A stretch of DNA of 64,000 nt from a bacterium. GTDB taxonomy: Bacteria > Patescibacteriota > Minisyncoccia > Phycocordibacterales > UBA2100. This document shows, one piece after another, positions 1,052-29,138 of this stretch (the first letter of the stretch is position 1; each line of letters begins with the position of its first letter). The stretch lies in assembly GCA_009924895.1 (NCBI GenBank), contig RFQR01000005.1:3710-67709 (forward strand), read 5' to 3'. The notes beneath the pieces are model-generated. The model did no database searches. It was given only the letters and a program-made list of their open reading frames with translations, and was not told the DNA's origin. The position numbers and the translations under genes are program-made.

Positions 1052-1087
1052 CGGGCTGTAGTATAGTGGTAGTACGCAAGCATGGGG
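1052..1087 (+). pseudogene. tRNA-Pro-like gene fragment, 5' half (acceptor 5' strand CGGGCTG, D-arm, anticodon-stem 5' strand and ATGGGG loop)
   Basis: 29 of 29 nt (TAGTATAGTGGTAGTACGCAAGCATGGGG) identical to the intact tRNA-Pro at 1189. The acceptor strand differs (CGGGCTG vs CGGACCG) and has its exact complement CAGCCCG at 1298-1304. Confidence 0.5.
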
Positions 1088-1136
1088 GTTTTTCGTAAAC
1101 ACAATCGCAAATTTCTTTGCGGTTGTGTCGAAAAAC
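1088..1136 (+). repeat. long near-perfect hairpin (GTTTTTCG / ACACAATCGCAAA - TTTC loop - TTTGCGGTTGTGT / CGAAAAAC) inside the interrupted tRNA-like gene
   Basis: Inverted repeat read directly. About 21 bp of stem with one G-U pair and a 2-nt bulge. Confidence 0.6.
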
Positions 1137-1173
1137 GGGCGTGACGATGTTTTACAAACACGGAGCGCCCAGG

Positions 1174-1273
1174 CTTTCTGCATCCTGTCGGACCGTAGTA
1201 TAGTGGTAGTACGCAAGCATGGGGTGCTTGTAGTTCGAGTTCGATTCTCGACGGTCCGACAGGATGCAGAAAG
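1174..1273 (+). repeat. perfect 15-bp inverted repeat (CTTTCTGCATCCTGT ... ACAGGATGCAGAAAG) directly abutting both ends of tRNA-Pro
   Basis: Seen in sequence. The repeat extends the tRNA acceptor stem into a continuous helix of about 22 bp. Confidence 0.8.
1189..1259 (+). tRNA. tRNA-Pro (anticodon GGG), CCA not encoded
   Basis: Manual cloverleaf: acceptor CGGACCG/CGGTCCG with C1:G72 and discriminator A73 (bacterial Pro identity). Anticodon stem CAAGC/GCTTG, loop ATGGGGT (U33, GGG, G37). T-arm TCGAG-TTCGATT-CTCGA. The 3' end is followed by CAG, not CCA. Confidence 0.8.
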
Positions 1274-1305
1274 TTGTAGTCCGGATTCGATTTGCGGCAG
1301 CCCGA
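1273..1305 (+). pseudogene. tRNA-like 3' fragment (variable loop TAGT, T-arm CCGGA-TTCGATT-TGCGG, acceptor 3' strand CAGCCCG, A73) matching the 5' fragment at 1052
   Basis: The T-loop TTCGATT and the acceptor complement of 1052-1058 are present. The anticodon-stem 3' strand is defective (GTTG instead of GCTTG) and the T-stem has one G-G mismatch. Confidence 0.45.
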
Positions 1306-4514: not shown

Positions 4515-4557
4515 ATTGCTGGTACCTAAAAGAGTAGTGTATAGTTTTCTTGTTTGA

Positions 4558-4631
4558 GGGCCTATAGTTCATCGGTAGAACGCGTCCATGGCATGGACGA
4601 GGGCGGGGTCCGATTCCCCGTAGGTCCACCA
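4558..4631 (+). tRNA. tRNA-Ala (anticodon GGC), CCA encoded
   Basis: Acceptor GGGCCTA/TAGGTCC with the G3:U70 wobble (the Ala identity element). D-arm GTTC/GAAC, anticodon stem CGTCC/GGACG with loop ATGGCAT, T-arm CGGGG-TCCGATT-CCCCG, then A73 and CCA. Confidence 0.8.
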
Positions 4632-4674
4632 ACGCGAAATGACAGTGCCTGCGCACTGTCATTTCGCGTTGGTG
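4627..4674 (+). repeat. perfect 22-bp hairpin (CACCAACGCGAAATGACAGTGC - CTGC - GCACTGTCATTTCGCGTTGGTG) that starts inside the tRNA-Ala 3' acceptor/CCA end
   Basis: Inverted repeat read directly. No U-tract follows, so it is not a canonical intrinsic terminator. Confidence 0.7.
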
Positions 4675-4836
4675 GAAGCTAGAGCGATGTGAGGCTAGCG
4701 ACCAGTTTTTCTTGCCGGTACCCCGGCTTAGAAAAATGGAAGTACTCTTGTGGTGCAAGCCGAACCGCGAGGCGGAGTCTCGCTTTCGTTGTACTGCCGC
4801 GACCTCCGCATTTCAAGTCATGTATAATAGCTCTCA

Positions 4837-6224
4837 TGGTGCATAAACATAATTCTGCATGGCTTGCGCAGGTGACCGATCGGCATGCACATGCTGGTGT
4901 TGAAACCGATGCGCAGCGTGAAGTCGTGATAGTGGGTGGTGGCATTTCTGGTGTTATGACGGCATACTATCTTTTGAAGTATACGCAGGTGCATGTGACC
5001 TTACTCGAAGGTGACAGGGTTGCCCACGGTGCAACAGGGCATAATGCGGGACAGCTTGCTGCAGAGTTTGAAAAGACATTTCTTGAGCTTGTGCAACAGT
5101 TCGGACTTGAGATGGCAGTGAGGGCAGAGCAGGATATCGAGCGAGCATGGACACTCCTTGAGACACTCTATGAGGAAGAATCCCTACAGACGCCGCTCTC
5201 TACCTTTCCAGGATATGCCGGGTATGAGTCGCCCGATGATACTGAACGAATACTTAGAAACCAGCATGCGCGCGCTGAGGCTGGTCTTTCACCGCGACGT
5301 GTGTATCTGCTCCATACTCTTGCTGACGAGGCTCGCTACGCCCCCTATCGTCGTTATTTTGAATCTATTACCGCAGAGGAAATTGGGAATTTACTTGAAA
5401 CAAACGCAACACACTATCGGGCAGTTTTGGCGCGAAAGCGAGGGTGTCTTAATTCTGCACTTTTATGCGAGGAGTTACTCCAGGTGCTTCACAAACACTA
5501 CGCCACGAGATTTGTCCTACACGAGCACAGCCATGTTTCTTCGGTACGTATATTTGCTCATCATGCGCGACTGTTTGTTATGAATACGGCGGCAAAACGA
5601 CATCATGTGCTTGACGCAGCCCGTGTGGTGCTCTGTACAAACGGCTTTGAAAATATCTCATTACTCACTGAGCGGGGCTCTGCGTTAGAAACTCGATTTC
5701 ATGACATGGTGCGGGGACTTGTGGGATCAATGGTGGGATATCTCGAGCCTGTGGGGAAAAACCCTACCGCGCTTTCATTTCACGATCAGTCGGGTACTCT
5801 CACGACGAAAGAATCTGGTTTTGATGAACGAGCCTATTTTTATTTTACGCGCCGTCCCTTTGAAATCGACGGGAGTAAGCATGCCCTCGTGTGCGTAGGT
5901 GGTCCTGAAAAAGTGATGAGCGATGCGAGGAGCTATCGTCCTAATGAACCATTCAATCCCGAACATCGCCGTGTTCTTGATACCTTTATGCGCACAACGT
6001 ACCGTAATCACGCTGATTTGCATTTTCGGTTTGCGTGGCATGGGCTTATGGGATATACCCCATCGGGTATGCGTATTATCGGTCCAGACAAAAAACATCA
6101 GGTGCTGTGGTACAACCTCGGCTGTAATGGTATTGGCCTTATGACCGCAATTTTCGGGGGATACAAAATAGCACAGTGTATGAAAGGGGAGACGTTTCTT
6201 TCTTCGGCGTTTGATCCACAATAA
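4837..6224 (+). CDS. FAD-dependent oxidoreductase (DAO / glycine-oxidase-like family)
   Basis: Dinucleotide-binding motif VVIVGGGISGVMTAYYL near the N-terminus. Track ORF 4689..6224 begins at a GTG that overlaps the tRNA-Ala hairpin. The ATG at 4837 (MVHKHNS) with TATAAT at 4822-4827 is the more plausible start. Confidence 0.6.
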
Positions 6225-6593: not shown

Positions 6594-6617
6594 TCCAGCC
6601 ACTAACCACTTCTGTCT

Positions 6618-7052
6618 ATGCTTATTGGCGAATACGAACACACGCTCGATGAAAAAAAGCGCGTGTCGCTGCCGAAAAGCTTTGTGCAGAAATTGGGGAA
6701 GCGAATGGTGTTGACCCGCGGGTTAGACAGTTGTCTATTTTTGTTTTCGATGGAAGGGTGGGAGAAAATCGCGGAGAAGCTTCAGTCGCTTTCGTTTGCA
6801 CAATCCGACACTCGCGGCTTTAACCGATTTCTGCTTTCAGGAGCAGTTGAAGTGGAGGTCGATGGGACAGGACGTATCTTGATACCTGATCACCATAAGC
6901 AATTTGCCGCTCTTAAAAAGACGGTTGTCTTTGCAGGAGTTTCGGATCGGGTCGAAATCTGGGACGCAGCGCAGTGGAAGCAGTACAAAGCCCGGATTGA
7001 GAAGCAGGCCGAGCAAATGGCGGAGAAGCTTGGGGAGATTGGGGCTCTCTGA
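6618..7052 (+). CDS. mraZ: transcriptional regulator MraZ
   Basis: Two-repeat MraZ architecture (EYEHTLDEKKRVSLP and DGTGRILIPD motifs), 144 aa, first gene of the dcw cluster. Confidence 0.9.
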   Translation: MLIGEYEHTLDEKKRVSLPKSFVQKLGKRMVLTRGLDSCLFLFSMEGWEKIAEKLQSLSFAQSDTRGFNRFLLSGAVEVEVDGTGRILIPDHHKQFAALKKTVVFAGVSDRVEIWDAAQWKQYKARIEKQAEQMAEKLGEIGAL

Positions 7053-28536: not shown

Positions 28537-28672
28537 ACGAGAGCTTGCTGGATTTGTACTAGCAGGTACTATCAGAAGTATTACTAGCTAATACTTTTTT
28601 GAGTTTATATCTAAATGAGCGTGTGTCCCTACTCTGCCTGACGGCAGACGGGCTACGAGGAAGAGGGCCCAA

Positions 28673-28971
28673 CCCTAATTTTTAGGATAGTGTTGCAAAA
28701 TGTATGCGGTGTACGTAATCCAGCACTCTCGAGATAGAAGTCTGTATGTTGATTATACCAATAATCTCAAAACAAGACTGTCTCAACATAATGCGCGCGA
28801 AAATATCTCAACAAATAGAACGGAAGGTACTTGGAAGTATGTCTATGTTGAATTATATCGTTCTGAAAAAGATGCGCGCACCAGAGAGAAGAAGTTAAAA
28901 CACCACGGCACAGCAAAACATAAACTGTTTGAAAGAATAAGAGACAGTTGTTTTGAATCCTAAAAATTAGG
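28673..28971. repeat. pair of inverted 14-bp palindromic repeats (CCCTAATTTTTAGGA at 28673-28687; TCCTAAAAATTAGG at 28958-28971) bracketing the GIY-YIG gene
   Basis: Read directly. The right copy overlaps the stop codon. Confidence 0.6.
28700..28963 (+). CDS. GIY-YIG nuclease superfamily protein (UPF0213-like, stand-alone 87 aa)
   Basis: N-terminal YAVYVIQ...LYVDYT GIY-YIG motif followed by a conserved R and a later E/N region. Confidence 0.75.
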   Translation: MYAVYVIQHSRDRSLYVDYTNNLKTRLSQHNARENISTNRTEGTWKYVYVELYRSEKDARTREKKLKHHGTAKHKLFERIRDSCFES

Positions 28972-29138
28972 CCTGGGAATCGGACCCCTAAAACACGTAC
29001 GTGTTCGGGAGTATCTGCGGGAACCCTCTGGTTGTACTTTCAACCATAAATTACTTTTCAAATCGCTTGGGAAACTGGGCAGACAAAGAAAGTAATACAA
29101 AGTACTCATCAATCATATTTGATCTGGTAGCCCCAGTG

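Follow-up and report, generated by a model that had tools for sequence, protein, structure and literature searches.

The question raised by a short intergenic region of the window (the whole 64,000-nt stretch of contig RFQR01000005.1 that was analysed), from an organism that belongs to Patescibacteria (candidate phyla radiation), is how a complete tRNA-Pro(GGG) gene came to lie between the two halves of a second one, and which of the two is still matured. An earlier note, made by reading the sequence, had described an intact tRNA flanked by an inverted repeat and enclosed, together with two hairpins, by a split tRNA-Pro-like copy, and its whole description of the parts matches the sequence at 1030-1320 exactly. 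The explanation that we hold, with modest confidence, to be the right one is that the locus has a single working tRNA, the inner one, which lies within the anticodon loop of an older tRNA-Pro(GGG) surviving as a split, non-functional shell, and which would be released from a precursor with a processing stem. The parts of the composite are the following.

1037-1051, + strand: decayed 5' flanking arm of the outer copy (TTTCGGACACAATGT), part-complementary to 1305-1319; the leader is conserved in L137, the homologous locus described below
1052-1087, + strand: 5' half of the outer tRNA-Pro(GGG), positions 1-37, with CGGGCTG, the D arm, the 5' strand of the anticodon stem and the loop ATGGGG
1088-1136, + strand: hairpin 1 of the insert, beginning right after G37, with an 8-bp base, a 13-bp top and the loop TTTC in the computed fold
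1137-1170, + strand: hairpin 2 of the insert (GGGCGT...GCGCCC), from the minimum-free-energy fold
1174-1188, + strand: 5' arm (CTTTCTGCATCCTGT), which prolongs the inner acceptor stem in a perfect 23-nt inverted repeat with 1251-1273
1189-1259, + strand: intact inner tRNA-Pro(GGG), with four perfect stems and CCA not encoded, found by ARAGORN and by RF00005 at 60.1 bits
1260-1273, + strand: 3' arm (CAGGATGCAGAAAG), which with A1259 is the exact complement of 1174-1188
1274-1305, + strand: 3' half of the outer tRNA-Pro, positions 41-73, with TTG, TAGT, the T arm CCGGA-TTCGATT-TGCGG, CAGCCCG and A73
1305-1319, + strand: decayed 3' flanking arm of the outer copy (ACAGTCCGCCTGAAA), within the inverted repeat 1037-1058 / 1298-1319

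The inner tRNA-Pro(GGG) is canonical. Its gene was called at 1189-1260 by ARAGORN, and 1189-1259 scores 60.1 bits against the Rfam tRNA model RF00005 (gathering score 29), so that both programs agree with the earlier identification of an intact gene at 1189-1259. The proline identity and universal elements, as read from these positions, are complete (C1:G72, A73, G35 G36, G37, G18 G19, T54 T55 C56 and G53:C61), and a cloverleaf above the Rfam threshold with the anticodon in a 7-nt loop is what is expected of a canonical elongator tRNA. The gene is enclosed by the inverted repeat 1174-1196 / 1251-1273, 23 nt long and 100% complementary, which is made up of the 15-nt flanks and the acceptor stem and in which the discriminator A1259 (A73) pairs with T1188 (T-1). 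The perfect 15-bp flanking repeat at 1174-1188 / 1259-1273 had been recognized before, and the helix that it forms with the acceptor stem is of 23 bp (approximately 22 bp had been given). Only two perfect inverted repeats of at least 23 nt are present in the whole 64 kb, the helix of the inner tRNA being one of them. The fold calculated for 1052-1305 has a minimum free energy of −126.6 kcal/mol (z = −11.3; none of 200 shuffled sequences was equally stable), in a structure where hairpin 1, hairpin 2 and the long helix that bears the inner cloverleaf meet at a junction shut by the outer acceptor helix. Both of the strong hairpins that had been noted, at 1088-1136 and 1137-1170, are part of it.

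The outer copy is most likely a dead, split relic shell. Its halves are recognizable as repeats of the inner gene (1049-1087 is a 39-nt direct repeat of 1186-1224, 95% identical, and 1274-1308 a 35-nt direct repeat of 1228-1262, 77% identical) and were also matched in nhmmer searches by profile hidden Markov models (HMMs) of the 5' half (E = 1e-11) and of the 3' half (E = 2e-5). The outer acceptor strands, CGGGCTG (1052-1058) and CAGCCCG (1298-1304), are exactly complementary and followed by A1305; repeats and sequence thus bear out the correspondence, proposed in the earlier note, between the 5' half at 1052-1087 and the CAGCCCG-A at 1298-1305. The outer copy also has flanks of its own, with 1037-1058 / 1298-1319 forming an inverted repeat of 77% complementarity. 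The interruption at the anticodon loop, which had likewise been seen, could be placed precisely, as the copy breaks after G37 and restarts at position 41, around an insert of 186 nt, of which 101 nt are tRNA and arms. Nucleotides 38-40 are absent, leaving 3 bp of the anticodon stem, and the T stem, CCGGA/TGCGG, has a G52.G62 mismatch and A53:T61 replacing the near-universal G53:C61 pair. With the insert removed, the outer copy therefore falls short of a canonical tRNA, which has a 5-bp anticodon stem, a T stem with G53:C61 and a 7-nt anticodon loop. When ARAGORN was run allowing for introns of 0-300 nt, the outer copy was not called and the inner gene alone was reported, and virtually spliced variants of the outer copy were called at a relaxed threshold only. 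The missing positions 38-40, the defective T stem and the lack of an ARAGORN call favour the first of two options that had been offered, that of a disrupted outer pseudogene with a working tRNA in the insert. The decayed arms of the outer copy and its three missing nucleotides are details that go beyond the earlier description.

CGGGCTG (1052-1058) can also pair with the inner 3' acceptor strand CGGTCCG (1252-1258) by way of two G.U pairs. Because these strands can pair, what remained if the 39-nt direct repeats recombined and 1088-1224 were deleted would be plausible as a single tRNA-Pro gene, and such recombination may be a route from the nest back to a plain gene.

The composite is inherited, a homologous structure being present in a second species. 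This locus (L137; loci and contigs used for comparison are given L numbers) was found by a metagenome scan with a 30-nt core and is 80% identical to the window over 344 alignment columns. The parts follow each other in the same order, namely leader, outer 5' half (ATGGGG, then G), hairpins 1 and 2, arms with the inner tRNA-Pro(GGG) and outer 3' half, with hairpin 2 beginning with GGGCG and the outer 3' half restarting with TTG TAGT. Between the two sequences, double compensatory changes number four in the inner acceptor stem, three in the inner T stem, four among the 15 pairs of the arms (where two pairs are broken), five in hairpin 1 (the apex of which, CGCAAA(C)TTTCTTTGCG, is conserved) and one in the outer acceptor stem (where no pair is broken). 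The outer T stem has none, and in L137 it has one one-sided change and one broken pair; it is imperfect in both species, differently in each, and the outer T loop of L137 holds an additional 29-nt hairpin. From the compensatory changes in the inner stems it follows that the two species split long ago. A long leader-trailer duplex around a mature RNA, kept by compensatory substitutions, is also what would be looked for in a processing stem. As for the plain tandem genes that, according to the earlier note, related genomes might reveal, L137 is the one related genome with the locus, and it is nested, with the flanking repeat kept by compensatory changes and no plain tandem genes.

A further relative, L125, has the same insert start (ATGGGG-G-hairpin-ACGGGCG) with no tRNA within the insert, a decayed 3' half and an intact gene just downstream. 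The GGGCG start of hairpin 2 is conserved in both L137 and L125, its apical part is not. Around the same type of insert the anticodon stems differ (CAAGC in the window and L137, CGTCC in L125), and in all three the 3' part restarts at position 41 and pairs with 27-29 (TTG/CAA in the window and L137, ATG/CGT in L125). The outer layer of the unrelated L063 likewise restarts at position 41.

Similar arrangements recur across Patescibacteria. A scan for the tRNA-Pro D arm with an NGG anticodon, at one genome per species, yielded 120 loci, all from Patescibacteria-type metagenome-assembled genomes and mostly plain 71-nt genes, and the profile HMMs of each tRNA-Pro half were used to find nested order and relics. 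With metagenome loci added, orphan same-strand tRNA-Pro halves lie beside an intact tRNA-Pro at 19 of 133 loci, or about one in seven. With these HMMs, an intact gene between a 5' half and a 3' half was detected in L017, L033, L039 and L072 as well, together with one-sided relic halves in many further loci, while in L056 and L063 the 5' halves are stacked ahead of the intact gene and both loci have three concentric layers. Enclosing shells with acceptor strands that pair 7/7 are found in about 12 loci, the sequences differing. Leader-trailer helices of at least 13 bp surround 7 of 125 tRNA-Pro genes, each of the seven being the inner gene of a nest, and none of 91 other tRNAs of the same loci; flanking helices of 15 bp are present in L062 and L093. 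The enclosing shell at first considered for L037/L129 was discarded as probably due to chance, its 3' end lying 553 nt downstream in coding sequence.

The site of insertion varies among loci (25/26, 32/33, 35/36, 37/38 and 38/39). In a second family the outer loop is broken after G35 (ATGG, then CCCC...) and the arms are of the CCCCGCACTAAAATTT / AAATTTAGTGCGGGG type; this CCCCG-arm family comprises at least 11 loci with every degree of outer-half loss, and its arms keep pairing, with three to four double changes between sub-types. A third family breaks at 25/26 (L072 and L101), and the empty L072 hairpin matches the arms around the L101 tRNA. Shells at various stages of decay (L013, L016, L044, L049, L007, L109 and L101) make up an erosion series. 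Outer copies often carry short, near-perfect hairpins exactly in the D loop, the variable region or the T loop, and inner genes never do; the T-loop hairpin occurs in related versions in L039 and L137. GC-rich hairpins of one family (CCGCCTNCGCCAAGGCTWCGGCGG and relatives) were observed in either orientation, in outer-shell T loops and downstream of tRNAs, in L039 (about 1155-1190), L137 (− strand), L044, L119 and L111.

Comparison of syntenic loci allowed nested and plain states to be set side by side. L070 and L125 are 81% identical over 6 kb; L070, like the more distant syntenic L058 and L030, has one plain tRNA-Pro, and L125, with the same upstream flank as L070, has the interrupted copy followed by the intact gene. 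L080 and L093 also have common flanks. L080 holds a plain tRNA-Pro(TGG) with CCA, and in L093 a tRNA identical to it at 67 of 71 positions lies inside arms and a heavily decayed shell, the acceptor strands of which are still complementary (CGGGATG/CATCCCG) and followed by CCA. At one Val-Pro(CGG)-Pro(GGG) locus, L039 and L024 are both nested, with different arms and loop hairpins, and L139 is plain. As to the kinship of the copies, the inner one is the closest relative of the outer one in L134, L039 and layers 2 and 3 of L063, whereas in L056, L033, L140, L017 and L125 unrelated tRNA-Pro genes are at least as close to the outer copy as the inner one is. It seems that some nests come about by local duplication and others by insertion of a different gene.

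By taking these observations into account, a path from gene to mature tRNA may be proposed. Transcription would start upstream of the outer 5' half and give an RNA of roughly 270-330 nt, in which the outer acceptor stem would close the junction and the inner tRNA would stand at the tip of a perfect 23-bp helix expected to block RNase P and RNase Z. As these two enzymes would be blocked, the first cut would fall to a double-strand-specific RNase, of the RNase III type, as in rRNA processing stems, after which RNase P, RNase Z and the CCA-adding enzyme could complete the inner tRNA. With respect to origin, the arms may have arisen by fold-back template switching primed by the acceptor-stem repeat, a proposal suggested by the fact that they are perfect and begin exactly at −1/73. 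From the palindrome at the 3' end of the tRNA-Ala gene of the window (see below), it can be seen that palindromes of the fold-back type do arise at the ends of tRNAs in this genome. The helix-flanked unit would then have been inserted or duplicated into the anticodon-loop region of the resident tRNA-Pro gene, which would be harmless because the insert brings a replacement tRNA. Repeated rounds would produce concentric layers, and recombination, slippage or deletion between the repeated halves would lead to erosion, one-sided relics and plain alleles.

Several observations weigh against this explanation. The outer 5' half is identical at 35 of 36 positions in the window and L137, more than would be expected of a pseudogene, compensatory change has preserved hairpin 1 and the arms, and the outer acceptor has stayed complementary through one double change. 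The fixed 37/41 break in the window, L137 and L125 suggests a defined boundary and not random decay, and the outer copies of L033, L134 and L140 keep four stems, with hairpins placed precisely in loops. Fold-back switching accounts for the arms, not for the nesting, and what looks like selection on RNA pairing could be the effect of homogenization of the palindrome as DNA. A possible origin of the inner 5' arm as a copy of the outer leader was also considered; the signal, due to L039 and L114, was weak (permutation p = 0.025) and was not relied on. Conservation of the shell could result from selection on the fold of the precursor, with the outer acceptor acting as closing stem or as a top-half substrate of RNase P or RNase Z; alternatively, it could result from palindrome homogenization, from gene conversion by the inner copy or from real splicing.

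Splicing would make the outer gene a functional tRNA-Pro with a new bacterial tRNA intron (186 nt, neither group I nor group II) that houses a second tRNA, both being matured: RNase P and RNase Z would free the inner tRNA, and the outer halves, held together by the arms as in Nanoarchaeum, would be trimmed and ligated. The layout, which L137 retains with compensatory changes and L125 in part, the 37/41 exon boundary common to these, the window and the unrelated L063 outer layer, and the outer acceptor stems perfectly complementary in about 12 loci of differing sequence would all fit, as would the four intact stems of the outer copies of L033, L134 and L140 and the L039 outer copy, which ends in CCA and the T loop of which, when 31 nt are taken out, gives a perfect T arm. 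Nonetheless, we consider this improbable, in view of the outer copy of the window, without positions 38-40, with a G.G mismatch and without G53:C61, and not called by ARAGORN in intron mode. In addition, boundaries have no motif common to the families, insertion sites vary, one or both outer halves have been lost with the inner gene kept in many lineages, and the middle layers of three-layer nests are clearly dead. A bulge-helix-bulge (BHB) motif, with two 3-nt bulges and 4 bp between them, was not found when the window, L017, L134 and the L039 T loop were inspected by hand. In these, the helices lie directly against the exons, with either a bulge on one side or an internal loop of unequal strands (in L017, a bulge of 9 nt confined to one strand; in the T loop of L039, an internal loop of 3 x 9); moreover, we know of no bacterial enzyme that splices such an RNA. 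A group I intron was rejected, in line with the earlier note. Neither the group I core (RF00028) nor any other Rfam family matched the insert even at E ≤ 10 (950-1400), and neither was found in L129 or in 16 nested loci, the group I model being one that does find an intron at 4928-5269 of L111. The splice-site rule (U before the 5' site and a terminal G) does not hold, as the 5' exon ends in G37 (or G38) and the insert ends in G in the window and in C in the L137 homologue, and the site is 37/38.

The helix-flanked tRNA-Pro could instead be a self-compensating mobile cassette that targets the anticodon loops of tRNA-Pro genes and spreads by means of a trans-acting enzyme or, after DNA uptake, by homologous recombination, with the conserved outer halves as homology arms. 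Such a cassette would explain the recurrence of the architecture in many Patescibacteria, the layers of L063 and L056 (expected if the tRNA of the cassette is the next target), the filled and empty orthologous sites (L070/L125 and L080/L093), the five loci in which unrelated genes are at least as close to the outer copy as the inner copy is (L056, L033, L140, L017 and L125), the occurrence of one insert type in tRNA-Pro genes that differ in their anticodon stems (CAAGC for the window and L137, CGTCC for L125), and the inner and outer copies of L039, which differ by compensated pairs only, as if both had diverged while functional. The proposal seems rather unlikely, however, since the arm sequences are unrelated between families, which leaves no site for a sequence-specific transposase, no direct repeat flanks the arms as a target-site duplication would, and no second copy of the insert exists in the 64-kb window or in the 120 other loci. 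The conserved terminal repeats, target-site duplication and multiple copies that mark a miniature inverted-repeat transposable element or other DNA transposon were not found, nor was a tRNA-Pro of the nested type in viral contigs or a recombinase nearby; a gapped pattern of the insert start gave 95 matches, all of them due to chance and none with tRNA halves. The inner copy looks like the resident gene in L134, L024 and L093/L080, and most families look vertically inherited, with decay. In broader terms, the locus may represent an unrecognized element of Patescibacteria, a helix-clamped tRNA-Pro that installs itself in the anticodon loop of tRNA-Pro either as a selfish replacement cassette or as a protein-dependent tRNA intron, which we regard as possible, if doubtful. 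If the former were true, the element would make its own insertion harmless and build concentric nests; if the latter, the host tRNA would still be matured, a bacterial counterpart of the archaeal split and multi-intron tRNAs. The interpretation of the earlier note thus stands in part, as a pseudogene shell that is neither an integrase scar nor a group I intron, its other option, an intron-like or mobile tRNA cassette, being the doubtful one. That the fragments are attachment-site duplications left by integrative elements that entered a tRNA-Pro gene and were later deleted is very improbable, even though tRNA fragments beside intact genes are a well-documented by-product of integration (PMC9897764) and such 3'-end duplicates are seen at the tRNA-Lys of L011 and the tRNA-Arg of L141. 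Integration gives a hybrid intact gene and one partial copy with the acceptor strand of the intact gene; at the nested locus the intact gene is a different one, lying between a 5' and a 3' half that match each other (CGGGCTG/CAGCCCG) and not the gene they surround (CGGACCG/CGGTCCG), the enclosed unit is bounded by a perfect inverted and not a direct repeat, and no integrase or element genes lie within 10 kb, all of which agrees with the earlier exclusion of the usual integrase 3'-end duplication. Finally, the chance of a sequencing or assembly artefact is negligible. Contigs L003 and L006 stop within a 29-nt repeat, as could be expected of a misassembly, but the same 394-nt intergenic sequence spans the region, identical, in four metagenome assemblies that are independent of each other and differ in sample and source (L001, L002, L004 and L005), and the diverged homologue L137 belongs to another organism; the assembly error that the earlier note had allowed for does not apply.

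The nested tRNA-Pro relates to known disrupted tRNA genes and to processing stems, and the prospect of its being an element of a new kind is real. Processing stems of rRNA and intervening sequences of 23S rRNA are cleaved by RNase III, and share with the nested locus a long leader-trailer helix with compensatory change and hairpin insertions in the loops of structured RNAs; unlike these, cleavage at the nested tRNA-Pro is only what we infer, and to our knowledge no RNase III processing stems around bacterial tRNAs have been described. Quasi-palindrome template-switch mutagenesis (Ripley; Lovett laboratory) reportedly yields perfect inverted repeats that extend short existing ones, which resembles the arms beginning at the base of the acceptor stem and would likewise explain the 24-bp palindrome of tRNA-Ala, whereas the nested tRNA halves are a direct duplication that such switching alone does not give. 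In the split tRNA genes of Nanoarchaeum equitans and other archaea (Randau et al. 2005), the halves are joined by a 12-20 bp non-tRNA helix (PMC4033280). There, too, the 5' half ends next to the anticodon and the 3' half is separate, and the outer halves and arms have the same topology once the inner tRNA is removed; unlike the archaeal case, the organism is a bacterium, the halves are on one transcript, joined through a complete second tRNA, and there is no BHB. The outer halves are probably not joined to each other, given the three missing nucleotides and the defective T stem. Outer copies with precise hairpin insertions in the D, anticodon, variable and T regions (L024, L039, L082, L137 and L140) recall the multi-intron and ectopic-intron tRNAs of Thermoproteales and Cyanidioschyzon (PMC4033280), but archaeal introns are defined by a BHB and a splicing endonuclease, neither of which was seen here, within the 64 kb of the genome covered, and many outer copies are visibly decayed. 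A survey of group I introns in tRNAs of Patescibacteria found them at every anticodon-loop position except 37/38, with no mention of tRNA-Pro or nesting (Nakagawa et al. 2026; PMC13011429). Phylum, anticodon-loop target and an interrupted gene missed by standard annotation are common to these introns and the nested locus, the insert of which, by contrast, has no group I core, is of 186 nt and sits at 37/38. Fragments left by integrative elements (PMC9897764) are similar in being partial copies beside an intact gene, and dissimilar in that here two halves of one gene surround a different, complete gene, with an inverted repeat and without integrase or mobile element.

Bacterial tRNA genes are described as being without structural diversity save for self-splicing introns (PMC4033280; PMC13011429), and in the literature on nested, intron-encoded or split bacterial tRNAs no tRNA-in-tRNA or helix-clamped tRNA gene was found. 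One tRNA gene inside the anticodon loop of a second, an arrangement that recurs across a phylum, would add a new gene architecture. Since annotation tools report the inner gene only, counts of tRNAs and pseudogenes in metagenome-assembled genomes, which feed completeness scores, are affected. The nested tRNA-Pro is also a natural system for the origin of disrupted tRNA genes, and can reveal whether leader-trailer stems guide tRNA processing where sets of RNases are reduced and whether palindromes seeded by acceptor stems drive rearrangement of tRNA genes.

With respect to the genomic context, the neighbours are housekeeping genes (AlaRS, TrhO, PfkB and AdoHcyase, then the mraZ-murE cluster), and no integrase, transposase, phage or mobile-element genes were found within 10 kb of the nested locus. 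One further feature upstream may be relevant to its expression.

944-973, + strand: sigma-70-like promoter candidate (TTGACA, 18 nt, AATAGT; 10/12 to consensus, a pattern match only), overlapping the stop codon of the upstream open reading frame

This candidate is a possible start of the composite transcript and was the sole good match, as the consensus scan gave no convincing promoter inside the insert. Directly 3' of the nested tRNA-Pro, at 1365-2270, is the gene for TrhO, a rhodanese-type tRNA uridine-34 hydroxylase involved in anticodon modification. By its TrhO homologues, the nearest of which are 66-68% identical, the organism is assigned to Patescibacteria. On the contigs of these nearest homologues (L127 and L128) no tRNA was found upstream of TrhO; as the adjacency is not conserved in relatives, it is probably a coincidence.

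The second tRNA of the window, tRNA-Ala(GGC), has an encoded CCA and no surrounding arms. At 4625-4676, starting inside its 3' end and including the encoded CCA, is a perfect 24-bp palindrome (TCCACCAACGCGAAATGACAGTGC / GCACTGTCATTTCGCGTTGGTGGA, with a 4-nt loop), the longest perfect inverted repeat of the 64 kb, with no T-run after it. As RNA, it would be predicted to rival the acceptor stem of the tRNA-Ala, and by its sequence it looks like a fold-back templated insertion.

Partial duplications were also observed at tRNA genes other than tRNA-Pro. In the case of tRNA-Lys(CTT) of L011 (about 6600-6863, − strand) and tRNA-Arg(CCG) of L141 (about 650-896, − strand), a duplicate of the 3' end, from the T loop onwards, is found 100-170 nt downstream. 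The intervening sequences of the two are homologous (GGGGTCGGG-AAAAC-GAGTTTYCC...GGAAAACCG), with no Rfam match, and could be a conserved small RNA or the remnant of an attachment site. In the 16S-23S spacer of L111 (about 4520-4760, + strand), the leader and first 22 nt of tRNA-Ile(GAT) are duplicated about 100 nt upstream, and after the gene come a GC-rich hairpin and what may be the relic of a 3' end (GCAGCCCACCA); in view of this duplication, nesting or partial duplication may extend beyond tRNA-Pro. In L132/L144 (about 5470-5530, + strand), a 37-nt partial copy, from the anticodon to the T arm and 95% identical, lies 23 nt 3' of tRNA-Ala(CGC), its acceptor end being decayed. Elsewhere in the window, a glmS ribozyme/riboswitch was matched at 28929-29106 on the + strand (40 bits; gathering score 37), and an imperfect inverted repeat, 28668-28688 / 28957-28977, spans its start.

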